Shown one piece after another: positions 15,648 to 39,014 of a stretch of DNA of 64,000 nt. Position numbers and translations under genes: made by a program. Within the stretch, counting starts at the first letter, position 1; the number at the start of each line of letters is the position of its first letter. Origin of the DNA: a virus (Duplodnaviria; Caudoviricetes); the IMG/VR virus record IMGVR_UViG_2933348407_000001, positions 32,001 to 96,000 of that record, one strand, 5' to 3'. The notes beneath the pieces are model-generated. The model did no database searches. It was given only the letters and a program-made list of their open reading frames with translations, and was not told the DNA's origin.

Positions 15648-16001
15648 GTGACTACTCAGCGAACCTCCTGGGCGCTCGCGCGTGAAGCCGCCGGCCTGTT
15701 CCTCACCGCGTTCGGCCTGCTCGGCGTCCTCGTGGCGTTGGGCGCACTCCACTGGGCCGCCGGACTTTCCGCCGCGATGGCCGGTCTCCTCGCCACGGGC
15801 CTGTTCATGCGCCCGAAGCCGACCGCAGCGCGCTGGGCGCACCTTGCCCGTGCCGCCGTCTGCATCCTCGGCTACGGCGGTCTCACCGGCTGCGCGTTCG
15901 CCCTCTGCACCCCCCTGGGCTGGATCGGCGTCGCCCTGGCGGTCGTGCTCCTCGGCCTGTGGCTCACCACCCGTGAGCACGAGGACGAGGGGGCCGCCTG
16001 A
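15648..16001 (+). CDS. small membrane protein upstream of the portal
   Basis: Three to four hydrophobic segments; TGATG coupling to the portal gene. Confidence 0.7.
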   Translation: MTTQRTSWALAREAAGLFLTAFGLLGVLVALGALHWAAGLSAAMAGLLATGLFMRPKPTAARWAHLARAAVCILGYGGLTGCAFALCTPLGWIGVALAVVLLGLWLTTREHEDEGAA

Positions 16002-18463
16002 TGCCCCGCCAGTTCCTCCCGACGCTCCGGGGACTCCTCGTACCGCGCTTGGCTGCTCCCCCGCCCACACCGACCGCTGAGACCAAGGACCTGCTCGCGG
16101 GCAACGCCTACGTGTCGATGACGTACGCCGGCGTCACCAACGTGTGGGGCACGCCCGGCCGCGCGGACGGCTGGGACATGGAACGCGTCATCGTCGAGGG
16201 CTACGAGCGCTCCATCTGGACCTTCAAGTCCATCGAGGCGATCAGTAAGCACGCCAGCACCCTCCCGATCCAGATCGGCCGGGGCGGGGACGAACGGCGC
16301 TTCGAGGAGACCCTCGACGACCACCCGCTGCTGAAGCTGCTCAACAAGAAGGCCAATCCGCTCGAGACCGGCGATGTCTTCAAGAAGCGGCTGAGCGCAC
16401 AGCTCCTTCTGTCGAAGAAGGGCGTCTTCATCGAGAAGACCTACAGCCGCGGCGGCAACCTCGTACGCCTCGACCTGCTTCCGCCGGACCGCGTCCAGAT
16501 CATCCCGGACGACCGTAACGCCGACTACGTGAAGCACTTTGAGTTCACGGACTACAGCGGCCACGTCCGGGAGCTGCTGCCCAAGCACGTCATATGGATT
16601 CGCGACCCCCACCCTCTCGACCCTTTCTGTGGCGTCACCCCGCTCGAAGCGGCGGGCCTGTCCATCGACTTGGACGTCAAGGCCCGCACCTACAACATCA
16701 GTTTTATTGACAATGACGGCAGACCGGGCGGAATTGTCGGTATCGACCTGGAAGGAGTCGACCAGCGCGAAGTCGACCGCATCCAGAAGCGATTGGCGCC
16801 CGGCGCGCACAGCGCCGGCCAGCTCACCCTCGTTGGCACCGGGCCCGGCGGCGTCACCTACGTCGACACCTCCGCCCGCCCTCGCGAGATGGCCTACGAG
16901 ACGCTGTCCGGCACCTCTAAGGGCGAGATCCTGGCCGCGTTCGGTGTCCCCGAAAGCATCGTCGGCAACGCCTCTGAGCGGACCTACGCGAATGCTGACC
17001 GCGAGGAATACAACTTCTGGGACCACACGGAGCTGCCCCACCTCAACCTGATCGCCTCCGGGTTCGACCCGGACCTCGATGACGAGTGGATCGTCCGCTT
17101 CGACACTTCCAGTGTTCAGGCACTGGAGTTTCCCCGCCGCCAGGCCCGCGAGGAAGCCCGCAAGGAGTGGGAAGCCGGCCTCATCACGATCGACGAGTAC
17201 CGGGAGATCGCGGGGCGACCGGCATTCAACGTCCCACAGTCCCGGGCCCTTTGGATCTCTCCGCAGAAGGCCCCCGTACCCGCCAACGACCAGGACGCCG
17301 CCGCACTGGGCCTCGGCCCCGACCCGGCCGCGGGCGGAACACCCGGAGCGGTGCCCACCGGCGCCCCGCTCCCGCCGGGCACCGCTCCGGACACCGCGGC
17401 CGCCGACGTCGCCGCCGCCCGCGCTCTGGACGCTGGCCCGAGCGCCGCCGCGGATGTCGCCGCCGCACGAGCGCAGGGCACGCCCCTCGCCCTGCCCGCC
17501 GGTTCGACGGCTACCGACGCCGTCGCAGCGGCCCGCGCCGCCACTACCGACAGCGGCCCCGGCGACGCGGCCGCCGACGTCGACCGCGCCCGCAGCGCCC
17601 AGAACGCTGCACTCCCCGGCGACGCCGCCGAGGACGTCGACGCCGCACGCGCCACGGTCGAGACCAAGGCCCTGCCCGAGGACGACGGATACGAGGTCAC
17701 TGACGACGACTTCGACGCTCTGTCCATGGCCGTGGCCGCGGCCGTCACCGCGCTCCTCGCACGCCAGGAAGGCGTCATACTCGCCCGGCTACGCGCTCCG
17801 AAAATCCGCAAGTACACGCGGTACTGGGAGCCCGAGAACGACGACGACGTCCGGCACGTCGACGCCGACCTCGACCAGGACCGTGTTGTCAGCGCCGCCC
17901 GCTGGGCCGAGGAGACCAGCCAGACGCTGACCCCGATCCTCCAGCAGGCGGCCATCGCCACGGCACGCAAGGTCGGCCAGGCACTCACCGGCACCGACGA
18001 AGTCCCGCCGGCCGCGGCAGCGGCCGCCATCGTTACCGCGGCGTACGCCAGCGAGGCCATGACCACGTTCCTCCGTGAACTGGCCACCGCCCTGTTCGAC
18101 GCACAGCACGGAGTACCGACGATCAGCGACCTCGAGAACGCTGTCGCCTTCTTCTACCGCTCCGCGGCCCCCAGCCTGGTGGCACGACTAGCCGAAGCCT
18201 GCGCCGTGGCAACCATCAACGGCGCCGCAGACGCGGCCGCGGAGCACGCCGGCCCCGACGTCGTCCGGACCTGGATCACCCGCGGAGACACCCGCGTACG
18301 GCCCGCCCACAAGGCACTCCACGGCACGACGCTGCCCGTCGGCACCCCGTACACCGTCGACGGTGCCACCCTCCGCTACCCCGGCGACCCCTTCGCCCCC
18401 ATCGCCCTCACGATCAACTGCCGCTGCCGCCTGCACTACGCCACCGACAAGGAGCCCCAGTGA
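16001..18463 (+). CDS. phage portal protein fused to a C-terminal MuF-like minor head domain
   Basis: HPLLKLL..ANP, LLPPDRV, G.TPLEAA and ILAAFGVP portal motifs; C-terminal WITRGDTRVRPAH...LRYPGDP...INCRC MuF motif. Confidence 0.85.
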   Translation: MPRQFLPTLRGLLVPRLAAPPPTPTAETKDLLAGNAYVSMTYAGVTNVWGTPGRADGWDMERVIVEGYERSIWTFKSIEAISKHASTLPIQIGRGGDERRFEETLDDHPLLKLLNKKANPLETGDVFKKRLSAQLLLSKKGVFIEKTYSRGGNLVRLDLLPPDRVQIIPDDRNADYVKHFEFTDYSGHVRELLPKHVIWIRDPHPLDPFCGVTPLEAAGLSIDLDVKARTYNISFIDNDGRPGGIVGIDLEGVDQREVDRIQKRLAPGAHSAGQLTLVGTGPGGVTYVDTSARPREMAYETLSGTSKGEILAAFGVPESIVGNASERTYANADREEYNFWDHTELPHLNLIASGFDPDLDDEWIVRFDTSSVQALEFPRRQAREEARKEWEAGLITIDEYREIAGRPAFNVPQSRALWISPQKAPVPANDQDAAALGLGPDPAAGGTPGAVPTGAPLPPGTAPDTAAADVAAARALDAGPSAAADVAAARAQGTPLALPAGSTATDAVAAARAATTDSGPGDAAADVDRARSAQNAALPGDAAEDVDAARATVETKALPEDDGYEVTDDDFDALSMAVAAAVTALLARQEGVILARLRAPKIRKYTRYWEPENDDDVRHVDADLDQDRVVSAARWAEETSQTLTPILQQAAIATARKVGQALTGTDEVPPAAAAAAIVTAAYASEAMTTFLRELATALFDAQHGVPTISDLENAVAFFYRSAAPSLVARLAEACAVATINGAADAAAEHAGPDVVRTWITRGDTRVRPAHKALHGTTLPVGTPYTVDGATLRYPGDPFAPIALTINCRCRLHYATDKEPQ

Positions 18464-18774: not shown

Positions 18775-18805
18775 CGCGACGCTAACCACCCGCACTGTGC
18801 ATGGT
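18775..18805 (+). promoter_or_regulatory. putative late-promoter motif (leaderless)
   Basis: CGCGACGCTAAC-N13-CATGGT-N7-ATG(18813). Confidence 0.65.
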
Positions 18806-18812
18806 CCGCGCC

Positions 18813-21800
18813 ATGCTGAATCGCCCCACTGCACAGGCTGAGTCGCAGGACCTGAGTCGCGACCTCGAGGTCAAGGTCACGCGCCGGCCGTGGAACCCTG
18901 CCCTGCACCCCCGGGACAGCAAGGGCCGCTTCATCGAGACCGGCGGCGTGGTGAGGACCTGGGGCGGCAAGCTCGCCCGCGTCATCCGCGCGCTCCCCCA
19001 CGACCGCATCCTCGTCCAGGACCAGACCGGCCCGAACGAGTTCAACGGCCGCAGGCACACCACCAGCGCCAAGTGGGTCAGCATGGTCGCGCGCCCCGAC
19101 GGCAGCGCGCCCACCGACGACGAAGAGAAGGTCGCCGAAGAGGACGAGCGGCGCACCCAGGACCCGCGCCGCGGCAACGGCGTAGCCCGCGACGACGACG
19201 GCGACCCGGATACCCCGAACGAGCCTCACGACCAGGACGACAAGGGCCGCCCGATCGGCGACGACGACGGCGACGGCCCGGACAACGATGACGACCAGGA
19301 CGAGCCCGAGGACGGCGCCCATCCGGTCAACGTCGATGCCCTCCCGAACCGGCAGCACGCGGCCGGGGCCCGGCATAAGGACACCGCCGCCGTCCGTCGT
19401 CACTTCACGCAGCTCGCCGAGCAGCCCGGCACGAGCCCCGACATGGCCACGTTCCTGCTCTCGGTGGCCCACGACGACGACCTGCAGACCGCCCCGTCCG
19501 GCCGCCTCGCGATCCTCCGCGACGAGAGGAACGGCCGCTTCTACCTCACGGCAACCGGCACCGGACAGCGCGTCGATGCCGCCGGCGACTTCGACACCGC
19601 TCAGGACGCCGAACGATTCGCCGAACACCTCGACAAGACCGCCGTCAACGGTCAGCTCACCAAGTTCCAGCAGCCGTTCGACTTCTCCGACCCGCAACTG
19701 GACCGGGAGGCCCGCGACTGGCGCACCACCAGGGGAGAGAACATCCAGGGCGCCATCCAGCGGGCCCGAACAGAGTTCGCCGGCACCCCGGCGCCCACGG
19801 CTACGCCGAAGACCTCCGCGGACAACCGGACCGACGGCAGCGGCCAGCGCTTCAGCACTCTCCAGGCCGCTCGCGCCCACTGGCAGCAGCGCCTCGGCCA
19901 GATCAACGACCTTGGCCCGGACAGCCTTCGAGAGCAGCGAGCCGCGCGACACCTCGAAGGACTGATCAGCAACGACCGGATCAAGCTCGTCGGCCGCGGC
20001 CAGTTCGTCGTCGGCCAGGACCAGAACGGCGAGTGGTACCTGGTCGCAACTGGCAACGGCCTGCCCCTCCGCCGTCGGTGGACCTCCCAGCGCGGCGCAC
20101 AGGCATTCGCCGAGTCCTTCGCCGAGAACCCGCCCATGGGAGACGACGGCAAGCCGCTGGACCTGTCGGACCCCAACGTCCGCATCGCAACCTGGCGTTC
20201 CGAGGACAACCGGTCGATCAGTGAGGTCATCGACGCGGCCGCCGAGAAGTTCCAGCGCGAGAACGCCGCAGGGGAACCACCAGCCGTCACCCCGGCGCCG
20301 GCCGCCGTTCCAGAGACGCCCGCCGCTCCGCAGGCGCCGGAGACCCCGGAGGAGCCGCAGGCGCCCGCGCTGCCGGGCAACGCCGAGCCCGTCGAGGGCG
20401 TCGACGGCTACCACTACGTCAACGATGGCGGATCAATCACCCTGTACGGCCCGGACGGACAGGTCGCCGCGACGAGCGAGCGCGGCTACCCGCCGCAGGC
20501 CAAGATCGACGGCGTCACCGTGCCCGTCCCGCAGTACCCGAAGCAGGGCGCCGCGGTGATGGCCCGCCTGCACCGCGCTGCGAAGAACCCGGACCAGCGT
20601 GACCGGATCACTGCGGCGTGGGTCATGAAGCCCGGCAAGGACGGCAAGCCCGCCAAGCGGGTCATGGTCTTCCGGGGCACCATCAAGGGCGACGATCGGG
20701 ACTACGACGCCGTGGGCTCCACCCGCGCCATCAAGTGGGCCCCATCCCTGCGCGCCTACTCGACCCAGTCGAACATGACCGAGGCCACGCGCGATGAGCG
20801 GATCTCGGAGGTCCTGTCCAACCTCGCCCGTCAGGGCCGCAACGTCCACGTCACCGACGAGACCGCTGCCGGCGCCCCGGGCGCCCCGGCCAACGCCGTC
20901 GACGAAACCGAGGCCCTGCGCAAGGCCATCGCCAACGCGGATGACGCCCGCCTGTCGCAGATGAAGTACGAGCGGTGGGGAACGATCAACCGCACCCGCT
21001 CCGAAGCCAACCGCCGACGCCTCAACTCCGAAGTCGAGATGATCGACGACGAGTTGAAGCGCCGGCGCAAGGAGCGGGACGAGGCCGCCGCCCGAGACGC
21101 CACGTCGCTCAGCGACGACGACATCGCCAACCGCATCCGCGAGTCGCAGGAGGAACGCGGAACCTACGGCGTTCGCAAGGGCCAGGAGGCCAACGACGTT
21201 GAGCGGGCCATTTACAGCGAGCGCCGCCGCCGCTCGCAGGCCCTCGTCGACGACGACACCGACCTGACCACGGCCGCCGAGGACGACCTGGCCAAGGCCC
21301 GCGAGACCGTCGCCGAACGCGTCCGCATGCACCAGGCCGCCGGCGACGACCCCGAGGCCGAGCGCACCATGCGCCAGGCCCTGCAGAACCGGCACGACGT
21401 CATCGTCGGCGAGCAGCAACGCCGCCACGCCCAGCAGATCGCCGACCGACCGCCGGTCGTCGACCTCACCGACGAGGAACTGTCGCAGGAGTACAACGAC
21501 TTGCTCCGGCGCGACTTCCGGAAGGCCCCGCCGGAGGCCCAGCAGGTCCTCGAGGGCCGCATGGAGGACGTCAAGCGGGAGCGCCGCGACCGGGAAAAGC
21601 GGGCCATCACCGACCGCGATGCCCCCGAGAACCTGAGCGATGAGGACCTGAAGGAGGAGTACACCGAGCTTCGCCGTACCCGCTCCTCGTACACCGGGAC
21701 CGACGACGTCAAGGCGGCCCGCAAGGAACGTATGGCCGCGCTGGAGGCCGAGCAGAACCGCCGCGACACCACGCCGGAGACTGAGCAGCTCCTCGCCCGC

Positions 21801-24800
21801 GTCGACAACCCCGACGCCAACGGCATGATCAGCATCGACGGCCGCAGCGGGTACGGCTACGTCGACTACCGGGATCAGACGCACGGGTACGCGGGCCGTC
21901 AGCTCGGATGGACCTGGGGCAAGCAGAGACACAGCCACGGAGACACGGCGTACCCGTCTCGTGCCGCGGCCCTGGCCGCGATGGTTCAGGCGTACGACAA
22001 CGACCCCGACACCCGCGGTGAGCGGACCTGGGGCACCAAGCGCCGCGTATTCGTGCCGAAGATGTTCGTCGAGCTGTACCAGAACGAGCGTCTTCGCGAC
22101 CGGCTCGCCGACGCCAGCGAGGAGCGGCAGTTCCTCTACAGCCTGTTCCGGGACCGGTACGGCTGGGACGACGGCGTGAACCCCCTGGTGCCCAGTAACA
22201 AAAAGGGCCACAACATAAAGGGCCGGAACCTGTGGGTGCCCGAAGGCCTCCTCGCCGAGCTGAACCGGGTGACGGAGGAGCTGTCACGGGACATGTCCGT
22301 GCGGGCCACGGACCGGGACGCGGACAGTTCCGACCGACAGAAGGCCAAGACCCGGCTCGCTTCCATCAACGTGGCTCTGCACGGCATTGAGGCGCAGCGC
22401 GAGTCAGTCCGCAAGAATGGCGGGGACGACGACCGGAAGGTCATCTCCCGCGAGGAGATCGAGGCACAGCAGGCCGCGCTCCGTGCAGCGCTGGGAGGCG
22501 ACGATGACGAACATGTTCAGTCCGATGGTCCGGGATCACTGGAGGACGTACCTGCCCAAGGAGTGGGCGGCGATGACCGATCCGGAGGCGTTCGTCGAGA
22601 CGAAGGCCAGGGAGATCGAGACTCAGATTCTGAAGGCCGAGGAGGCTCTGGAGCAGACAGTTCCGGAGCCGACGGAGTACGAGGAGCAGGTCGGCCGGCA
22701 CAAGCAGATCAGGGCGGACGCAACAGCGATGGTCCTGGCGGAGCTTCTGCCGGAGCCGGAGCCCGGGGCGGAGAAGGCGCCGGAGCAGACGCCAATGGAG
22801 AAGCACCTGCAGGAGATCAGGGACCTGATGTACGACGCGTAGCGCGGTTCCGGCCGGACCCGGCCAACGCGCCCAAGGGCGCCCGCGCGCGTGCGACGGC
22901 CAACGTCGAGGCCATTCGCGTCCTCAAGAAGCTGGAGGCAGAGAACCGGCCGGCCACCGACGAGGAGCGCCGTATCCTCGCCCGCTGGTCCGGCTGGGGA
23001 TCGGTGCCGATCCTCTTCGCCAACGAGCCGAACGAGAAGGAGCCCCGCTACCAGCAGGGCGGTACCCGGTACGGCAAGTTCGCCAAGGACCACGAGCGGT
23101 GGTCCGAGTACAGCGACGTCCGCAGCGAGCTGCAGCGCGTGCTCACGCCGGTGGAGTTCCGGCAGGCATCCCGCGGCGTGCTGTCCATGCACTACACGCC
23201 GCAGCCCATCGCCGAGGCGATGTGGGAGGGCCTTCGGGCGTTCGGCTTTGACCGCGGTGACGTCCTCGAAGCCGGTTCCGGCGCGGGCACGTTCTTCGGC
23301 GTCGCTCCGAACGGTGCCCGTCTGACCGGTGTCGAGCTGGACCCGACCACGGCCCGGATCGCCCAGGCGATCTACCCGCACGCCAATGTCCTGAACGAGT
23401 CCTTCGCGGAGACCGACGTCGGTCCCGGCACCTTTGACGCCGCGATCGGCAACGTCCCCTTCGCCCGGGTCCCGTTCGATGACAAGCGGTACCCGGCGGA
23501 GAGCCTGCACAACGGCTTCGTCACCAAGGAGATCGCCCTCGTCCGGCCCGGCGGCATCACCGCCGTCATCACCTCTCGCCAGACCCTCGACTCCAAGGGC
23601 GACAGGGCCCGCCGCCAGATGGCCAAGTACGGCGACCTGGTCGGCGCCGTCCGCCTGCCCTCCGGCGTCTTCACCGACGCCGGCACCGGGGTCACCACCG
23701 ACGTCCTCGTGTTCCGTCGCCGCGAGGACGGCACCGAGCCGGCTGACCCGTCGTGGCTGGACGCCCCCGAACGGGACATCAACGGCACCGCGCACCACAT
23801 CAACGCCTACTTCGACGAGCACCCCGAGCACATCCTCGGCACGCTGACCACGCAGTCCGGCCCGTACGGGCCCGAGGTGACAGTCAAGGGCGACCCGGCC
23901 AAGGCCGCCGAGCAGCTTCGCGCCGCGCTCGACGACATCGCCGCCAAGGCGAAGGCTGACGGCCGCGGCTACGAGCCGCACCCCGACGGCGACAACCGGC
24001 CTCCGGTGCAGCTCCAGACCGCCCGGGAGAAGCACGCGAACGACTGGACGGGCCGCCTGTACGAGGGCGACGACGGCCAGTTCTACCAGCACGTCAACGG
24101 TGCTGAACCGGTCCTGCTGGAGCCGGCCGACGGCAACACCGCCCAACTTCGTGCCCTCATGCAGCTCCGCGACGTCGCCGCCGAGCTGCGCGAGCTGGAC
24201 CGGAAGAACGACGAGGAGGAGCGCGCCGAGGCCCTGCGCGCCCAACTCCGGGACCTGCACGCCGACTACGTCGCCGAGTACGGGCCCCTGTCCAAGCCGG
24301 GCCAGCACCGCACCAAGGGCGGCCGCCCCACGGCATGGGGCTACTTCCGGGCCGACCCGGACGCCGCGGCCGTCCTCGCCCTGGAACGGTGGGACGCCAG
24401 CAAGGGCGAGCCCGCCCTCTCCCGCGTCTTTACCGAGCGCGCCGCCGCTCGCCGACAGCCGCTCTCCTCGACCAACGACCCGAAGGCGGCCCTGGCCGCG
24501 GTCGTTGCTGCCAAGGGTGAAGTGGACCTCGGCGAGATTGCCCGGCTCCTCGACGTCACCCCGCAGGAGGCGGTGAAGCGCCTCGGCAACGAGGTCTTCA
24601 CCGACCCGGAGACCGGCGGCCTCGAACTGGCCGGCGCCTACCTGTCCGGCGCCGTCCGCGACAAGCTCGATGCCGCCCGCAAGGCCGCCGAGCGCGACCC
24701 GGGGTACGCGGTCAACGTAGCCGCGCTGGAGGCCGTTCAGCCGCCGGACCGCACCATCGGCCAGTTCACCCCGGAGATGGGCGCCCACTGGACGCCCCCG

Positions 24801-27800
24801 GAGCTTCTGCAGGGCTTCCTGCGCGAGTACCTGGGCGACCGCACACTCCGCGTCGCGCACGACGACCGGTACGGCTGGGTTCTCAACACCGGCCGCGTGC
24901 CCGAGGCCAACAACGTCATGTACGGCGTCCCGGCCGTCGAGCCCGACCCGGACAAGGGCATCAAGGGCAACAAGGGCAAGAACGCCGTTGAGATCGCCCG
25001 CGCGATCCTCGGCTTCGGCTCGCTGACCGTCTACGAGGACGACAAGCGCAAGGAAGTCGACGAGGCTACGTCACGTCTGATCCGGCAGAAGGCCGATCAG
25101 ATGCGGGCCGAGTTCGCCAAGTACGCCACGGCGAACGCCGAGCGGCTGAGCGTCCTCACCGACTCGTACAACCGCATCATGAACGGGCACATCGTCCGTT
25201 CGTACGAGGGCATGTCGCCCACGCTCGAGGGCTTCACCCCCGACCGCAACCCGCACGCCTGGCAGCTCGCCGGCGCGGCCCGGATGCAGTTCGAGCGGGG
25301 CGTGATCCTCGCCCACGAGGTGGGCCTCGGCAAGACGTCGACGCTCGTCATGGGCACCCAGGCTCTCAAGGCGTCCGGGCAGATCGAAAAGCCCATGGCC
25401 GTGGTGCCCAACCACGTCTCCAAGCAGTTCTACGACGAGGCCCGACTTCTCTACCCGAACGCCGACATCCACCTGATCACTTCGGCGGACCTGGCCGGCG
25501 ACCGGCGAGGCAGCACGCTGGAGTGGCTGCGCGCGAACAAGCCGGACCTGGTCATCTTCACCGAAGAGGCGTTCGGCTCGATCAAGATGAGCCCGGAGGC
25601 TCAGGACGACTACGAGTTCCGGGAGCTGGAGGCGCTGCGCGAGCAGCTTGACCGCCAGTACGAGGACGCCGACAACCCGAACCACCCGTTCATCGTCGCG
25701 AAGATCGAGCAGCGCATCGCGACGGTCAGCAAGAACATCAACAAGAACGCCGCCCCGATGCGGCGGCCGGGCGAGACGTACTGGGACGACCTCGGGTTCG
25801 ACTACTTCGTCGTCGACGAGGCCCACAGGTACAAGGGCGTCGGCTTCCGCTCCAAGGAGGGAGGCGGCGACCCCGCGTCCATCCGCGGCGTCGACCTGCA
25901 CCAGAAGACGACCGATCTGCACCGCCGCCGCCAGGGCCGGGCCACGATCACGCTCGCCACCGGTACGCCGCTGTCGAACAGCATCAGCGAGCAGTTCACC
26001 ATGCTGATGTTCGCGGCGCCGTGGGTGCTGGACGCCTACAAGGCGGGCGCTCCGGACCTGTGGGCCAACACCTTCGGCCGCAAGACCCTGCGCATCGAGA
26101 ACGCGCCCGACGGCTCCGGCCTGCGCGTCGTGGAGCGGTTCTCCGAGTTCCACAACAAGCGCGCCATGAAGACCATGTGGGGCCTGGTCGCGGACACCAA
26201 GCGCGGTGACGACGTCGGCATTCCCCGCCCGAAGCTCAAGGGCGGCAAGCCGAATCTGATCATGGTCGACGCGACGCCCGACCAGAAGAAGCGCCTCAAG
26301 GGGCTCGTCGCCCGCGGCCGCGCGATCCACAACGGTGAGGTCGACCGCCACCAGGACAACATGCTCGCGGTGTCCAACGAGGGCACCAGCGTGGCCCTCG
26401 ACCCGCGGCTCATCGACGCCAAGGCCCCGGCCGGCAACAAGCTCAAGGCCGTCGCAGACCGGCACATCGAGCGCTACTTCCAGCACAAGGACCGGATCTA
26501 TCCGGTCACCCGCGACAGCCTCGTCGACCACCCCGTCCCGGGCGCCCTCCAGATGATCTTCCTGAACGAAGGCGTCCCGGGAGGCAAGAACAAGGGCAAC
26601 TTCGACGCCTACGCCGAACTCAAGCGGCTCATGGTCGCGGGCGGCATCCCCGCGCACAAGATCGCCTTCGTCCAGGACGCCAAGAAGTCCGGCAAGCCCG
26701 AGGACATGACGGAGCTGTTCCGGAAGGCCCGCGAAGGAGAAATCGCGGTCCTCATCGGCTCCAGCGCCGTCGCGGGTACGGGCATGAACGCCCAGGACCG
26801 CATGATCTCCCTCTCGCACGTCGACCTCGACTGGGGCGCCGCGCAGATGGAACAGCGCAACGGCCGCATCCTGCGCTACGGCAACCTGAACCCCGAAGTC
26901 GAGATCGACATCTACGCGACCAAGGGCTCCATGGACGGCTGGAAGGCCGGATTCGTCGCCGCCAAGGCTGAGGGCCTGGTCGACATCCAGCGGCCCGAGC
27001 CGGAAGACGGCGACTCCAGCGACGTCGTCCAGGAGATCGACGGCGCCGAGTTCGACTACGAGACGATGGAAGCCGAGATCGGCGGCAACCCCTTCATGAG
27101 CCAGCTCATGAAGGCGAAGCGCCGTCTCAAGGACCTGGAGATCGACCAGCACAACGAGGCCGCCGAGCGTATCCGCCGCGCCGAAGCCCTCGATGCGCTG
27201 CGCCAGGAAGCCCAGGCCACCCGCGACGGCATCCAGCGCCGCGAGCAGGCCCTGCCCCGCATCCAGGAGGCCGACGACCGGTTCCGCATGACCATCGGCG
27301 GCTCCCCGTATGGCGAGCGCTCCGACGCTGGCAAGGCCCTGCACCGGCAGATCACCTCCCGCCTCCTCGAGCACAATCGTGAGGGCCTGAGCGACTGGCA
27401 CGTCCTTGGCCAGTTCCGCGGCCTGGACTTCGGTGTCCGCACCGAGAAGACAGCGGACGGCAAGCTCGTCGCGCACGTCGGCTTCCCCGACCTGCGGCAC
27501 TCGGACTTTGAGCGGACCGTGGAGGACCTGCAGAAGAAGGGCGCCGGGGCGGGCATGATCACCCGCCTCGGCAACGCCCTCGACAAGGCGCCCGCGTTGC
27601 AGGAGTCGGACCAGGCCAAGGTTCCGGAACTGGACGAGCAGATAGCCCTGCTCCAGTCCGCACACGCGGCCGCGGACCTCACCCCGCAGATCGACCACGC
27701 TCGCAAGCGGTCGAACCTGCTCGAGGAGATCGTCGCCCGCGTCACCAACCTGGACGCGAAGCCGGAGATCGACCCCGACGAACTCGACAAGGAGCGGTAC

Positions 27801-30800
27801 AAGAACAAGGACGACCGCGAGAAGATCGCCAAGGGGCGGCGCGAGGAACGCGAGCCGCTGCAGGCCGCCGTCGACGAGGCCGTCGCGAACCTGCACCGCT
27901 GGGACGAAGAGAACCCGGCACCCGAACAGGACGACACGGTCCGCCTCTCCGAAGACGAGGTGCGCGAAGCCCTCGCCCGCCTCACCCCGGAGCCCAGCAC
28001 CCCCCCGAAGCCGGGCGCCCCGGAGACCAACAACCGCAGTTCCGCGGATGCCGACACCGACGTCGACGAGCCGAACCCTGACGAGACGGAGGCACCTGAC
28101 ACCACCGGATCAGGCAGCAGCGACGAGCCGCCGGCCGCCGTACCGGCCGAGGGTGACACCGACGCCCAGAACGACGGCCAGGACCAGGACGACGTCGTTC
28201 GCCTCTCCGAGGAAGAGGTGAACGACACCCTCGCCAGCATCCAGCCGGACGCCGACACGACCGGAGGCGACGAGCCGGACGAGCCGCTGCGGTACGCGTG
28301 GGACAAGCCCGAGGACTTCGTCACCCTGACCATGCCGGCTGCACTCGCCGACTTCCTCAACGTCGACGAGACCGCCGCCATGGAGGACCCCGACACCCGA
28401 AAGGCCCTCAAGGAGGCCAAGCCCGGCCGCCGCGGCACACTCCAGGTGACCGGCCCGATCGAGGTACACCGCGCCCTCCTCCAGTGGGCATGGACGCTCG
28501 AGGGCGGCGAAGGACTGGAGTCCGACCCCAGCGATGTCCGGGCCTACAAGGCGTACGCCAAGCGCATCGACGAGGCCGACGCAGACCTGCAGCGCCGTCG
28601 CGCCGAGCGGGAGGCCGCGGCCTCCGCGGACACCGACGAGAACAACACCCCGGACACGGACAACACGAACGACGGCGGCAGCGACGCGCCGCCGGCCGAC
28701 GCCCCCAGCACGGCTGAGCCGGACGGCGAGGACGACCAGGACCAGAGCACCGACGACGACACGGAGGCCAGTGACACCGTCACCCTGACTCCGGATGAGG
28801 TGTCCGACCAGCTCGACGCTGTACGCCCCGAGGGGTCCAAGGCTCCGTCCTCGATGGACGATGGCGAGATCCGCGACGAGATCGTCGACCTGATGGGCCG
28901 TGAGATGGCGGATGAGCTGTCCGGCGCGGACCGTACCCGCCTGCAGGTCCTGGAGGCGGAGGAGGCCCGCCGTGCCGGCCGGGCCCCGAAGCCGGAGCCC
29001 AAGCCGAAGCGGACGACCGAGGAGCCCGGGGGACTCTTCGACGTCGACCAGCCCACCACCCAGCAGCCGAGCAGCGCCGCCGATGTCGACAACCCTGAGG
29101 ACCAGCCCGACGACCTCTTCGGCACGCCGGACATGATCGCCGACGCCGAGGGCCGCAGCACCGAGGGCCTGCGCCCGGCGCGCATGCGCAACGCCGCCGA
29201 CTTGGAGCAGGGCGACCGGTACACCGACGCAGACGGCCGCACGCACACCGTGTCCGAACCGCCGGTCAAGACGCCTCGTGGCCGGACTCGCATCGTCACC
29301 GACGACGGCGAGGAGCGCTTCTACAACGCCGACGCCCAGGTGCGCCTGCGCTACCCGGACGAGGAGATCCCCGACAACGAGACCGACGAGCGGTCCGCCG
29401 ACGACGATGCGGACAACGTCCCGGCCGTCGACGAACCGGAGACCTCCGAGCCGGACGTCGACGGGACTCCCGCCGACGAGCCGGAGTTCACCCCCGACAG
29501 CTACCGCAGCAGCGCCAAGGACCGCGCCGACCGCATGACCGGCCTCATCGACCAGGCCACCGACGGGGCAGGCGGTGACGAGCTGCCCGAGGTCAGCGAG
29601 GTCCGTGATGCGTTGGGCAGGGCCGAGGACTCCGACGACCCGGACGCCGAGCTGCGTTCCGCCGCCGACCGGCTCGACGACCTCGCAGAGATGTATGAGC
29701 TGGGAGGCCCCGACGGAGAGCGCGCCGCAGACCTGTTCCGGCAGGCCGCCCGCATCGCGAGGGGTGAGGACGAGGACGATCGCCGCGGCGACGACGACCG
29801 CAACGAGGACGACAGCGAAGCCCCCGACGCTACGAACCAGGACTCCGAGGAGGACCAGGACGACGACGAGGAACGCCAGCAGCGTCGGAATGGGGACGCG
29901 GACAGCGACGCCGCCGACCCGGACGGTGCCCCCGACGGAGGCGGCGCTGGCACCCCGGCCGCTCCCACCGACGAGGAGGACGAGGACGGCAGCCCCGACG
30001 ATGTGCCCGACAACTCCGACGACGAGCAGGACGAGCCGGAGGCCGAGGAAGACGACGAGCAGGACGACCGTCGCCGACGTCGCCGTCGGCGTCGCCGCAA
30101 CGGCGGTGGCGGCAGCGGCGGCCCCAGCGGGCCCGGCCTGCCGCACCTGAACCTGCCCGACCTCAACACGCCGGACACCGGAGGCGCCGACGGCAACGGG
30201 GATGGCGGAGACGGCCGCGGTACGCGCGACCGCGGGCGGACCCCTGTACGGCACAGCGACGTCAATTCGCTGCGCCGCGCCTGGAAGAACGGCGATGGGC
30301 TCACTCCTGCCGAGGACACTCCGCAGCGGCGCGAGGCCCTGGCACAGGCGGCCGACCGGGACGGCTTGGCTCTGTCTCCGGGCGGGGGCCTGGTGACGTG
30401 GCCCGAACAGCAGGAAGACGGCACCACCCTGTGGCGCTTCGCCCAGGCACGCAACGGCGCCAACCTGACCGGACTGTCCCTGACCACCGAAGACCCCGAA
30501 GAGGCCCGCGCGCTCGCAGGCCGCTTCGAGGAGATCACCGGTCGCGACGGGCAGCCCTTCGACTGGCAGCAGGCGTGGGGCCCGAGCACCGTCGGGCAGT
30601 GGCGCGACGGGGAGGGCCGCAACCTGCAGCGGGCGCTCCAGGCCGTCCTCGACGACTTCGAGCAGCAGCGGGACGCCTCCGCCCAGCCGGAGCCGACGCC
30701 AGAACGGAGGGCGCTGCCAGACGACCTCACCGGCCTCGACGACGACGAGCTGGTCGACGCGTGGAGCAACGACCTCAGCGACGAGGACCAGAAGCGCCTC

Positions 30801-33800
30801 ATGGCGGAGATGGACCGCCGCGACGGCTACACGGACCAGCGCGTTCGTGACGTGCTGCCGGACACCCCGCCAGCCGACGCCGAAGAGGCCGAGCGCCGCG
30901 CAAAGGCCGTCGACGAGGCCCTCGGCTTCGCAGGCGCCGACGTTCCGCGCGTGCGTCGCACCCGTGAGGACATCATCCGTGCGGAGTTCGCCGACTTCGA
31001 CGAGGCCCGCTACCAGGCCGCCATTGCCGCCACGAACGGCTACTTCTACGCCCGGAAGTACAAGTACGGCAGCGGCATCAACGAACGAGAGCTGTTCTCC
31101 GGCGGTGAACTCGCCAAGTTCGGCCGCTGGGAGGAGTACGCCAGCGAGGAACTGAAGGACTGGTACAAGGCCAACGGCGGCCGCATCACGTACAACCAGT
31201 TCCGGCAGACCTACCGGGACAACGACCGCCGAGACCGGCAGCAGTTCGAGGAGGAGCAGCGCCGCCAGGCGGAAGCCGGGCAGACCACGGAGCCCACCAC
31301 CCCGGAGACGGAGCCGTACGACCCGGTCACGCCGCGCTTCGCGGATGAGGCGGCCCTTCGGGATCACATCCGCAGCGGGCAGCTCGACGAGGTGCCCGAA
31401 GACCAGCGTGGAGACGTGCCCTCAGCCGAGGAACGCGCGCAGATCGCCGATGCCGAAAGCACCCAGCTCTCCGACGGCGGCCGACTGCTCATCTACGGCA
31501 ACGAGGCCGGTCGCACCGGCAGCCGCAGCGGGCAGCGGTTCGACGTGGCCCTTCCGGGCAGCATGCAGCCCCTGTTCCGCAGCGGCTTCCACAGCGCCGA
31601 GAAGGCCCGCCAGTACGCCAGCGTCCTCGAGGGCATCAAGGACGCGGACGGCAACCCGTTCCCGTGGGACGCCCCCGACGTCGCCGAGCGCGCCCGCGCG
31701 TTCCGGACCGCCGACGGCAACCGGCTGTTCGACGAGATCACGGAACGCCTGTACGGCTTCAACGACCTCTACGAGCAGTGGAACAGCGACCGCGGCCAGG
31801 CATTGCACCACCGGACGTGGAGCCAGCAGGAAGCCGACTGGAACACCCGCGAGGAGGAAGCCGGCTACTCGATTCCCGTCGACCTGACGGACATTCGCCC
31901 GGGTGACGAAATCAGCTTCCCCGTGGCCACGAGCCGCGGACAGAACACGCGGCCGCAGGACGAGTACGTGGGAACCGTGCACGCTACGGTGACCGGCGAG
32001 GGAGAGCCCTTCCGATACCGCTCGCAGTTCTCTGCCTTCGGGAGTCAGCAGCTCTACCGGTTCCCGGCTGAAGGCTCCTGGACCAACCAGTACGGGGAGC
32101 ACACCGAGATCGACGAGGCGTTCCCGAACCTGGGTGTCGTCCGCCGCCGCCCGCGGCCCGATGAGGTGCCCAGCACGGGCGACGGCCGCGACGACCGTTC
32201 GTCCCGCGCGGACACCCCGCAGGCGGAGACGCCGGGCACCGCGACGCCCCGCGCGCGGCGGCAGCCCGCCCCGGACCGTGCTCCTGCAGAGCCGGAGCCC
32301 GCCGTGCCCTCGGCGCCGGCCGACGAGCCGCAGGGTGAACCCGAGCCCGTGGGCGGTCAGCCCGCGCACTGGGCGCGTGTCCGCGACCTGGTGCAGGGCG
32401 ACATGGTCCGTATGGACGGCCGCACGAGGAACGGTCGCGCCATCACGCGGTCTGGCTACGTCTTCACCGGGCCCGTCGACGTGGAGGTCACTCGCAACGG
32501 CCGTACGGAGCGGATGCTGCGCACGTACGTCACGGCGAACCCGGACGGCACTGGCAAGCGTGGCAATGTCTTCACGCCGCGGAACGCCACCGCGGCGCGG
32601 GCCGAGACGCCCGACGACGTGGTGCCCGGGTCTCCGGCCAGCGGCGCGCAGAGCGCCGTTCAGGCCGGCAACCTCCCCGACCTGATCCCCGCGGACCGGA
32701 ACGGCCGGGGCTTGTTCCCGGGCAGCACGGTCACCAGTGTTGACGGGCTACGTACCCGTGAGGGCACCGTCACGGGCGCCACCAGCACCACGGTGTCGGT
32801 GCGCTGGGACAACGACGACACCGCAGACGGTCTCTCTCCGAACGCCCTCACCGTGACCGGTGGCGACCGCCCCGACGGCTGGACCTCGTCCGGGCAGCGC
32901 GTGACCCCGCGGCACATCGTGACCGACACCGAGGGCGCTCTCCTCGGGCCCGTCGACGAGGTCAACGGCGACCGCGTCACCATCACCACCGCCGAAGGCA
33001 CCATCACGCGGAGCGCCGGAGATCTCCGCGTCGCTGGCGAAGTGCGCGACGACGCCCCGGGCACCGACCCCGTCACCGGCATCGACGACCCGGCGGCCGC
33101 GGACATCAAGGAGGACGACGTCGTGGTCCTGGACCTCGACGGCACGCCCACCACTGTGGCGGTCACCGGTATCCACCGCGAAGGCGACCGCGTCACCATC
33201 GACTTCGCCGACACCACCACAGGCGAGATCGGTCAGATCGACGTGGACGCCTCCCAGGTCATTCCCCGGGCCCAGGGCGCCGACGACACTCCGCCCGACC
33301 TCGGGCCGGACGACGCCCCGGACGCCCCGGACGACCTGACCGTGCACGAGCCGCCGCACCGCGTCGAGCCCGTCACCGGCCCGACCCTCGACCCCGACCT
33401 CACGATGGGCGACCGAGACGTCATCGGTGACCTCGCGGACGGCCCGGACGACGACCCCGACGCCCAGCAGGCCGCCGTACGCATCACTGCCGACCTGCCT
33501 GTCCCCCCGGAGCAGGCCGCCGCGCTTGCCGCGCAGCTCCGCGATTCTGCCGACCCCTCGACCCCGGAGGGCCGTGCCGCCCTGCGCGCCGCCAACCACC
33601 TGGACCGGGCTATCGGCCGGACCCCTCCGCCCGAGCTCAACCGGCCGCGGCCGTCGAACGCCGCACAGGTCGCGGAAGACGACACGATCGCCATCCCTGA
33701 CAACCGGGGCAACGGCGTGAGCGTCTACCGCGTTCGGGGTGTCGAGGACGGCCCCGGCGGTACGCGCAGCCTCCTCCTGGAAGGCGAGGACGGCCGTACA

Positions 33801-37094: not shown

Positions 37095-39014
37095 GTGCCG
37101 AGCGCTCCACCCACCAGATCGTCACACCCGAACACCCTGCGAGGCACCAGCCGGGCAATCTACGCCGTCACTGGCGTGGTCGACGAGGTCAACGACCTCA
37201 TCGTCCCCGGCGCCTTCGCCCACACCCTGGCCACCCGCCGCGTCAAAGCCGTATGGCACCACGAATGGAAGGACGCCGTCGGCGTCGTCCTGCACGTCGA
37301 GGAGTGGCTACCCGGCGACCCGAGGTTCGCCGACGTCCCCGACTGGCCCGCGGAGGCCGGCGCCCTGGTCGCGACCGTCGAGTACAACCGGCGCACCAGC
37401 AAGGGACGCGACACCTACGAGCAGGTCAAGCAGTGGTACGAGCACGGCGAAGCCGCGTTCTCCATCGGCTACCGCGTGCCCGCCGACGGAGCCACCCGCC
37501 GCGGTGACGGCGTCCGCGTCATCCACCGTCTCGACCTGTTCGAAGTGAGCCCCGTCCTGCACGGCGCGCACCCGATGACCCGGGCGCTCGAGGTCAAGGC
37601 CGCGGCCAACCCCGGCATGGAGTACAAGGCGACGCCCAACCTCGTCGAACTCGACACGGGGAAGGACGAGGACCGCATCAAGGTCGCCGGACTCGTTCTC
37701 AAGGCCGAGGACACCGGCCGCGTCCTGCTCATCCAGCGCGCCCTCGACGACGAGGACCCGGCCGCCGGAACCTGGGAGTTCCCCGGCGGGCACCTGGAGA
37801 AGGGCGAGGACGCGCTCGCCGCGGCGCTGCGCGAGTGGCAGGAGGAGACCGGCGCCGAACTCCCCGGAGCGACAAGCGTCGTCGGCTCCTGGACCGCCCC
37901 GAATGGCATCTACCGCGGGTTCGTCGCCATAGTCCCCGGCGAGTCCCACATACCGCTCAACCGGCCCCCCAGCGAACGACGGGTGACCAACCCCGACGAC
38001 CCCGAGGGCGAAACGCCGGAGGTCACCGCCTGGTGGCCGATCACCGCTCTCCCCGACATGTCCCTGCTCCGGCCCGCATGCCGAGACACCCCGTGGTCTC
38101 TCCTGGCAGGCGCCACCTTGCCGCAGGGCCCGGCGGCCAAGAAGCCCAGCGCCGAGGCCGAGCAGTTCGCCGCTGGCGTCATGAACACCTACGCCGCTCT
38201 CGGCGCCACGGAAGCGAAGTCCGCGCACGCCGCCGTGGCCGCCGCCCGTTCCGTCCAGCCGCGCATCGAGCACAAATCCGCCCGCTCCACGGTCGCCGAG
38301 GCCAAGAGCCATCCCACGCCCCTCCCGGAGGCTTCTGTGATGTCCCCCAACCCCCTGCCCGAGTCTCAAGAACAGTTCCGCGCCCGCCTCTCCGACAGCG
38401 TCCGCGAACTCCTCGACCAGGACGGCCAGACCTGGACGTGCATCGAGGGCACCTACCCGGACCGCGTCATCGTCTCCGTGCACAGCGAGGACGAACGGCG
38501 AAGCAGCCACTACGCCATCCAGTACACGGCCACCACGAACGGCGAGATCAGCCTCGGCACCCCTCAGTCCGTCGAACTCGCCACCGTCGTACTCCCGGAG
38601 GGCACCAGTGCGCAGCGTGCGGCCACCGACGCGGAAGACGTCGATGCCCGCGTGGTGCAGCCCACCGCGGAAGCCCTCGCCGACGCCACCGCCCGCATCA
38701 ACACCACCGAGGCCGACCCGGACCAACTCACGGGCGTACGGGACAAGGTGCGCACGCTGATCGCCGCCCTGTCCGCGAAGGGCCTCGACATCGCCGACGA
38801 CACCGATGTGCCCAAGGACGCCCCCCGGGACCGCACGGCCGGCCCTACCGGCATGGACCTGTGGGACGAGTACACGTTCAACGACGACGAGGACGAGGAC
38901 GAAGTCCCCACGGAGGACGCGCCGCCGCCCGCCGAAGACGACGTCGACGACGAGGACACGGTCCGGCTCGACGAGGACGAAGTGAAGTCCGCGCTCGCCA
39001 TGATGCGGAGCTGA
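37095..39014 (+). CDS. HK97-family prohead protease fused to a NUDIX hydrolase domain
   Basis: DLIVPGAF, WHH, FSIGY and LFEVSPVLHGA (peptidase S78); Nudix box GGHLEKGEDALAAALREWQEETG. Confidence 0.85.
   Translation: MPSAPPTRSSHPNTLRGTSRAIYAVTGVVDEVNDLIVPGAFAHTLATRRVKAVWHHEWKDAVGVVLHVEEWLPGDPRFADVPDWPAEAGALVATVEYNRRTSKGRDTYEQVKQWYEHGEAAFSIGYRVPADGATRRGDGVRVIHRLDLFEVSPVLHGAHPMTRALEVKAAANPGMEYKATPNLVELDTGKDEDRIKVAGLVLKAEDTGRVLLIQRALDDEDPAAGTWEFPGGHLEKGEDALAAALREWQEETGAELPGATSVVGSWTAPNGIYRGFVAIVPGESHIPLNRPPSERRVTNPDDPEGETPEVTAWWPITALPDMSLLRPACRDTPWSLLAGATLPQGPAAKKPSAEAEQFAAGVMNTYAALGATEAKSAHAAVAAARSVQPRIEHKSARSTVAEAKSHPTPLPEASVMSPNPLPESQEQFRARLSDSVRELLDQDGQTWTCIEGTYPDRVIVSVHSEDERRSSHYAIQYTATTNGEISLGTPQSVELATVVLPEGTSAQRAATDAEDVDARVVQPTAEALADATARINTTEADPDQLTGVRDKVRTLIAALSAKGLDIADDTDVPKDAPRDRTAGPTGMDLWDEYTFNDDEDEDEVPTEDAPPPAEDDVDDEDTVRLDEDEVKSALAMMRS

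Follow-up and report, generated by a model that had tools for sequence, protein, structure and literature searches.

The window analysed here is a single strand of 64,000 nucleotides (nt) from a virus of the class Caudoviricetes, corresponding to positions 32,001 to 96,000 of the IMG/VR record IMGVR_UViG_2933348407_000001. On its plus strand lies a giant open reading frame (ORF) of 5680 codons (18801-35843, taken as frame 0), for which the ORF list of the window shows no stop from one end to the other. Wholly inside it, on the same strand and in its +1 frame, sits a second gene of 112 codons (22504-22842), closed by a TAG at 22840-22842 and preceded by a Shine-Dalgarno-like (SD-like) GGGAGG at 22493-22498, 5 nt ahead of its ATG. 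The giant frame reads the overlap as 113 stop-free codons (22503-22841). The same nested layout is found in 42 of 42 related loci, and we consider it very probable that this DNA (22503-22842) is read in two frames, with both products being made.

The overlap divides the giant protein in two. Upstream of it lies an N-terminal part of 1234 residues (18801-22502), whose C-terminal end is conserved in other giant lineages. Downstream, a methylase-helicase module (22842-27746) opens with the conserved N-terminal region RFRPDPA...WSGWG directly after the nested stop, the TAG standing three codons ahead of its start. The piece beginning at 22842 matches phrog_10089, labelled 'DarB-like antirestriction', with an expectation value (E) of 3.6e-267 over 1625 residues (residues 11-1635). 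Pfam families are found in the giant protein just under their cut-offs: N6_Mtase at 20.3 bits (cut-off 20.4), SNF2-rel at 22.7 (24.9) and Helicase_C at 21.8 (23.5). An adenine methylase thus precedes an SNF2-type, superfamily 2 (SF2) helicase in one chain, as in DarB-like proteins. Neither the 1234 residues before the overlap nor the last ~2680 (27801-35843) match any Pfam or PHROG family: these large ends are uncharted parts of a polyvalent protein.

Base composition changes frame at the borders of the nested gene. Over the whole giant ORF, the G+C content at codon positions 1/2/3 is 0.74/0.49/0.895. Within 22504-22842 it becomes 0.894/0.646/0.381 in the giant frame and 0.646/0.381/0.894 in the +1 frame. 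A 150-nt scan along the 17-kb ORF finds giant-frame third-position G+C (GC3) below 0.70 only in intervals spanning 22431-22940. The peptide read from the overlap in the giant frame is of low complexity (27% G, 15% D, 13% A, 10% R and 9% S), with 7% of hydrophobic residues against 22% in the rest of the giant protein. These traits had been described in part by a first-pass annotation of the window, which reported a ribosome-binding site, an ATG and a 112-residue helical ORF, a move of the third-position G/C bias to the +1 frame, and an open, G/D/R-rich linker in the giant frame, the nested gene ending just before the methylase domain; on each of these points our measurements agree with it.

Selection was followed in seven close sequences (the window, two Streptomyces genomes and four IMG/VR contigs), aligned over 678 columns without an indel, using pooled Nei-Gojobori ratios of nonsynonymous to synonymous differences (pN/pS). 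In the overlap the ratio is 0.43 for the small frame, 1.22 for the giant frame and 1.04 for the third frame. On the flanks the giant frame is constrained, with 0.41 upstream of the overlap and 0.22 downstream, and 1.09 is obtained for the small frame when it is extended upstream beyond its ATG. From this pattern, protein-level selection lies on the giant frame up to the ATG, on the +1 frame between ATG and TAG, and on the giant frame again beyond the TAG. In three further groups of sequences, the small frame has ratios of 0.51, 0.34 and 0.60, against 0.97, 0.65 and 1.16 for the giant frame.

The nested frame carries start signals of its own. The GGGAGG element is invariant among the seven aligned sequences, and in every lineage examined an ATG or a GTG stands behind a purine-rich, SD-like element; start codon, SD and stop are all retained down to 27-31% identity of the small protein. 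The last 34 giant codons before the nested ATG (22402-22503) show unusual conservation at the DNA level, also at synonymous sites: 10 of their 102 columns vary, against 38 of 129 further upstream, and only 5 of 34 giant third positions do so, against 20 of 43 just upstream. Translation of the nested gene may be initiated from this segment. Its RNA is no more folded than shuffled sequences (z-score of +1.29), and a scan of 22100-23000 revealed no promoter-like and no terminator-like site.

The small protein also exists outside of the giant ORF. Stand-alone Streptomyces homologues of 105-112 residues (one of them a partial record) are 56-96% identical to it, and a profile built from 18 family members reaches 1197 cluster representatives at E≤1e-3, of which 738 at E≤1e-10; lengths range from 88 to 295 residues among the 150 representatives listed. 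AlphaFold2 (AF2) predicts five helices for the nested protein, with a predicted local distance difference test (pLDDT) score of 86.5. Taken together, the codon bias, purifying selection in four groups, conserved start signals and a family of this size argue, on comparative grounds, that the nested ORF is a real gene, as the first-pass annotation had proposed.

That annotation had also pointed to a similarity with TnpV-like proteins, which is borne out in part by the family, below the Pfam cut-off, and fails for the window's own protein. Pfam TnpV (PF14198) matches 17 of 84 family representatives at E≤0.01, with a best value of 5.1e-5 and none above the curated cut-off of 27 bits. The match is nearly full-length in one relative (L030), whose residues 5-81 align to profile positions 27-111 at E 7e-4 and 20 bits. 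The nearest ESM-Atlas clusters of the nested protein are actinobacterial and automatically named TnpV, which is a lead only. The nested protein itself does not reach the TnpV cut-off, and the TnpV model finds nothing in the whole provirus record even at E≤10. A search of PDB sequences with the family profile returned only a synthetic helix (E 0.2), and tblastn of the nested protein against a phage collection gave no match. By these profile comparisons, the nested protein is a member of a large actinobacterial family that is remotely TnpV-like, and the name TnpV-like, partly supported, describes it best as long as the likeness is understood to be distant and below the Pfam cut-off.

To see the overlap in other lineages, we collected loci from 401 genomes of the genus Streptomyces (with the protein in 22), 401 genomes of the class Actinomycetes (in 15) and a plasmid collection (9 records); the named source genera are Streptomyces, Pimelobacter and Ruania. 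Wherever the small ORF adjoins the methylase module, the methylase frame, which is the -1 frame of the small gene, runs through it without a stop: this holds for 42 of 42 loci, forming 14 single-linkage clusters at 60% identity. Six of six close loci keep this frame open to either side of the small gene, and the long frame remains open even where the identity of the small protein to that of the window drops to 27-60%. Family members in other contexts served as controls (L019-L022, L027, L029 and the first copy of L066/L073). Six such homologues each have one to six stops in their -1 frame. In these six, 16 of 68 T-ending codons precede a codon starting with AA, AG or GA, an arrangement that never occurs in the methylase-linked small ORFs.

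The complete ORFs that bear a nested gene measure 3444, 5271, 5280, 5444, 5483, 5515 and 6523 codons, with 69 to 1301 residues ahead of the small gene. The longest belongs to L066/L073 (G159:C7, ~149454-150348), where two TnpV-like genes stand in tandem: only the second copy is nested, in the 6523-residue ORF that starts 69 codons ahead of it, and the open -1 frame of the first copy amounts to just 186 residues. After the small gene, the N-terminal region of the methylase is kept in all lineages, down to its closing motif W[ST][GS]WG. It begins 2-5 codons past the small-gene stop in most of them; in the exceptions (L026, L068, L071 and L072) it follows only after ~30-100 further residues.

Two loci were set aside in this comparison. 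One, from Promicromonospora (L003), is a weak partial match of 46% identity over 37 residues without a long frame through it, and was dropped. The other (L058) might have served as a counter-example, with its methylase region spread over two frames and one stop in the -1 frame; it was treated as decayed.

Decay is also seen in L011 (G163:C53) and in L033, on the S. hirsutus plasmid NZ_CP109265.1 (17998-18327). In both, the small gene is intact, at 75-79% identity, but stops interrupt the giant frame or an IS5 transposase gene has taken its place. Since the small gene outlives the giant frame in these copies, the small protein may have a use of its own.

TGA is the commonest stop codon in high-G+C actinomycetes. 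Among the 42 methylase-linked small ORFs, 39 close with TAG, three with TAA and none with TGA, which may reflect shared ancestry or a need for termination of the release factor 1 (RF1) type at the junction.

The shortest members of the group locate the start of the methylase frame. In 10 of 13 short-leader loci, this frame has a start codon 67-208 nt upstream of the small gene (67-82 nt in eight of the ten, 208 nt in L053), from which a conserved leader peptide is read. The leader start is the first in the open stretch in nine of the ten, an earlier ATG being present in L071. Two other loci, L066 and L068, possess upstream starts with leaders that resemble the motif loosely at most. Across six loci, the variable columns of a 13-codon leader core fall at codon positions 1/2/3 in the proportion 1/1/5, and the Ruania plasmid spells the same leader motif with different codons. 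With the leader upstream and the methylase domain downstream sharing one stop-free frame, the methylase frame would be read through the whole of the small gene, and these short forms are the strongest single argument for it.

The leaders themselves (L054, L060-L065, L071-L072 and L053) open with a conserved basic N-terminus, behind which comes a motif like IDGQLSLESLW, with the variants QQSLDLW and QPDLFS. It resembles QL[SD]LF, a motif that binds the sliding clamp. The resemblance would suggest, by analogy, that these antirestriction proteins are recruited to the host clamp.

Annotation of the locus varies among relatives. On the Pimelobacter simplex plasmid NZ_CP097986.1 (L053, 6555-6633), the Prokaryotic Genome Annotation Pipeline (PGAP) starts the SNF2-related coding sequence (CDS) at a GTG inside the conserved region. 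The methylase frame is open there from 5742, and the PGAP start is probably set too late, truncating the conserved N-terminal region. Four Streptomyces plasmids (L032 and L055-L057) list only the giant CDS over the nested ORF, in PLSDB tables that are incomplete.

Altogether, the own codon bias, start signals and selection of the nested frame, and the continuity of the giant frame in relatives, bear out the first-pass annotation in its view of a true dual-coding region. The argument for translation of both frames is one of comparison throughout; for the host frame across the overlap, it consists of the frame shared by the two flanks, the avoidance of stops and the conserved leader.

Several observations weigh against this reading. 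In a single genome, an exact calculation from the small protein and the codon usage gives the giant frame a chance of 0.22 of being open, so that its openness in the window, taken by itself, proves little. The case is carried by the comparison, in which the product of the largest per-cluster chance values over the 14 clusters is 2.6e-9; this figure applies the codon usage of the window to all lineages and multiplies over lineages that are not fully independent. The first copy of L066/L073 has an open -1 frame as well, with no methylase module behind it, which is within chance. In one short-leader locus (L070), the open stretch upstream of the small gene holds no canonical start in the methylase frame. 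Small-frame ratios of 0.34-0.60 amount to moderate constraint only. As to the product, the nested protein reaches no Pfam family, with no TnpV match at E≤1, and no family in PHROG or in NCBIfam (the latter searched with the 18 alignment members), and Foldseek comparison of its AF2 model with the PDB yields nine matches, all at E>5, hence no solved fold alike. Finally, no RNA runs containing the stretch were found.

Programmed frameshifting, by which the TnpV-like segment would be made as a fusion, either to the N-terminal part through a +1 shift near 22500, with its end at the TAG, or to the methylase-helicase through a -1 shift just ahead of the TAG, is improbable. It would fit two frames one base apart, with an SD-like GGGAGG inside the giant ORF just ahead of the switch, a small-ORF stop so close to the methylase domain in most lineages and never TGA, and a +1 frame whose open stretch in close relatives reaches back 77 codons from the ATG. 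Yet inspection of both junctions by eye, without a dedicated scan, showed no conserved slippery heptamer, and the junction sequences differ between lineages. The small frame evolves neutrally upstream of its ATG, and in L011, L021 and L023-L026 a stop closes it a few to ~25 codons before the start. Every lineage keeps the ATG or GTG with its SD. For a -1 shift near the stop, the methylase frame would not need to be open across the small gene, yet it is open in every methylase-linked locus, and the conserved leader places the start of that frame upstream.

It is very improbable that the giant protein is the sole product and the +1 ORF a fossil (an in-frame domain scrambled by compensating indels or a silenced gene), its codon bias being a remnant. 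The moderate selection on the small frame would agree with such a relic, and so would the complete Streptomyces plasmids that list the giant CDS only, a weak point given the state of the gene table. A silent relic would not, however, hold a GC3 of 0.9 and an open frame over such divergence, nor keep start, SD and stop at so low a protein identity. Purifying selection in four independent groups, the existence of stand-alone homologous genes, and the survival of the small gene at decayed loci all speak for a gene in use.

A third possibility, that the N-terminal part, the small protein and the methylase-helicase are three separate polypeptides, the long frame being open by chance or ended by an unknown mechanism, we likewise regard as very improbable. 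High G+C leaves a -1 frame open about one time in five, and the PGAP annotation of the Pimelobacter plasmid does separate a small gene from an SNF2-related gene behind it. A separate methylase gene would, however, require a start, and no ATG, GTG or TTG of the methylase frame was seen, by eye, within ~30 nt of the small-gene stop in the four lineages inspected (the window, L012, L017 and L023); scans of three short-leader loci place the next such start inside the conserved N-terminal region of the methylase. Nor is there a frame-0 stop at 18801-35843 in the window, or across the overlap in the loci compared, where the same frame is open on both flanks.

A pair of indels faking a frame switch through sequencing or assembly error can be practically dismissed: in each of three independent assemblies of ~97% identity, a single contig spans 22200-23100 gap-free and differs by 27-33 substitutions, the 678 aligned columns are free of indels, and the layout recurs in many lineages.

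Returning to the reading in which both frames are translated, we asked what the overlap encodes in the giant protein. For the giant-frame segment 22248-23240, modelled with AF2 from 14 aligned sequences, residues 83-202 have a pLDDT below 50 and no secondary structure, and the flanks are confidently helical; the overlap corresponds to residues 86-198. In this model, the overlap would be a disordered, low-complexity tether joining the 1234-residue N-terminal part to the methylase-helicase. We infer that the small gene is the older, selected frame and that the giant-frame linker was written over it and kept merely stop-free. This reverses the direction given in the first-pass annotation, which took the small gene for the overprint: it is the linker that has a pN/pS near 1 and no predicted structure.

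The surroundings of the pair are those of a prophage head module. The source record is an IMG/VR provirus of 108.5 kb. Ahead of the giant gene, on the same strand, a portal ORF (16001-18463; phrog_2662, E 1.1e-82) has a C-terminal part of the head-morphogenesis (MuF-like) type, with head-morphogenesis families matching residues 634-818. Behind it follow a head-protease/NUDIX protein, a major head protein, a tape measure and tail proteins. The first of these (37095-39014, 639 residues) combines head-maturation-protease and NUDIX matches in one protein. At the start of the window, 7-1194 encodes an FtsK/SpoIIIE-like protein, which is unusual for a tailed provirus and brings the conjugative elements of Streptomyces to mind.

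A near relative, a circular Streptomyces 'plasmid' of 129.6 kb, shows the same order of portal, one CDS of 17,541 nt, NUDIX-domain protein and major capsid, with three small hypothetical CDSs between the large CDS and the NUDIX gene; the nested ORF is not listed in PLSDB. Plasmid versions of the giant gene adjoin a gene for a type IV coupling protein. Family label and gene context mark the giant protein as a polyvalent, DarB-like methylase-helicase encoded in the head module of a Streptomyces prophage; it may act in antirestriction, and may be packaged in the virion or transferred with the DNA.

We propose the following scheme. In Actinomycetes, a conserved cassette would consist of a methylase-helicase ORF that starts upstream of a TnpV-like gene and crosses it in the -1 frame of the latter. 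Ribosomes entering at the upstream start (18801 in the window) would make the large protein with its unstructured tether, and those loading at the internal SD would make the small one. Over the overlap, selection on protein sequence would act on the small frame alone, that on the giant frame only purging stops. What precedes the small gene would be a short leader peptide in plasmid and chromosomal versions and an N-terminal module of 690-1300 residues in the giant Streptomyces versions; the tether would have let leaders or large modules join the methylase-helicase without loss of the small gene.

The small protein may be a partner of the methylase-helicase, acting as an assembly factor, an adaptor or an inhibitor, a role we put forward tentatively. 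The argument is positional: the small gene always immediately precedes the methylase module, no matter what stands ahead of the pair, so its product would most likely work with that module. This constant position is the one point in favour of a partnership, for which the first-pass annotation had suggested a chaperone or regulator of the methylase-helicase. Encoding the small gene inside the tether would fix its co-expression and place its synthesis beside the nascent methylase domain. A fuller version is conceivable, though we would not lean on it: that of an obligatory two-frame cassette across the Actinomycetes, whose small protein is a co-translational partner (an assembly factor, a packaging or transfer adaptor, or an inhibitor until delivery) and whose tether has enabled repeated N-terminal fusions.

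Embedded out-of-frame genes are known from other systems. In phage lambda, the whole of Rz1, start codon included, lies in the +1 frame of the larger Rz gene on the same strand; both proteins are made and bind one another. The pair described here is likewise a complete nested phage gene with its own start, in the +1 frame and on the same strand. In Rz/Rz1, both frames are functional and selected, whereas here the giant frame provides a stop-free, seemingly disordered tether with a pN/pS near 1, and the embedded gene appears to be the older one.

In Bacillus subtilis, comS occupies 46 codons within a folded enzyme domain of srfAB and is confined to one species group. It resembles the present case in that a giant multi-domain ORF harbours, out of frame, a small gene equipped with a ribosome-binding site. 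The overlap reported here is longer (~90-200 codons), falls in a linker between domains and recurs throughout a bacterial class. The distinctive feature would thus be an embedded gene found class-wide, with a host frame that is a mere tether over an older gene.

With TnpV of Tn4451 (PF14198), the nested protein has in common that it is a small helical protein of mobile elements whose family gives sub-threshold, full-length matches; it differs in lacking any match to the Pfam model, and no member seen reaches 27 bits. TnpV itself is not known to have an assigned function or to be nested in another gene. Our search of open-access papers and preprints, supplements excluded, brought up no report of a methylase-helicase gene with a TnpV-like gene inside it.

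For the giant protein, the closest parallel is DarB of P1 and the polyvalent dyad, with which it shares an adenine methylase and an SNF2-type helicase behind a conserved N-terminal domain, in the neighbourhood of head genes. Very large phage and plasmid proteins containing a dyad of LPD36-methylase and SF2 helicase have been described as polyvalent proteins (Iyer et al. 2017, PMC5512222). The words 'TnpV', 'overlapping' and 'frameshift' are absent from the main text of that article, which thus describes no gene embedded ahead of the methylase.

Well-supported long nested genes on the same strand are rare in bacteria and their viruses, and most proposals rest on a single genome. The present layout spans ~90-200 codons in two frames, recurs in 14 clusters of one bacterial class and shows a clean switch of selection. 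It offers a natural model for the origin of overlapping genes, for their upkeep in high-G+C DNA and for the way in which a disordered linker can come to overlie a gene older than itself. The layout also connects a widespread TnpV-like family with DarB-type antirestriction methylase-helicases, which makes the functions of both easier to test. If the proposed cassette is true, polyvalent proteins could grow by N-terminal fusions and yet keep the gene of their partner.

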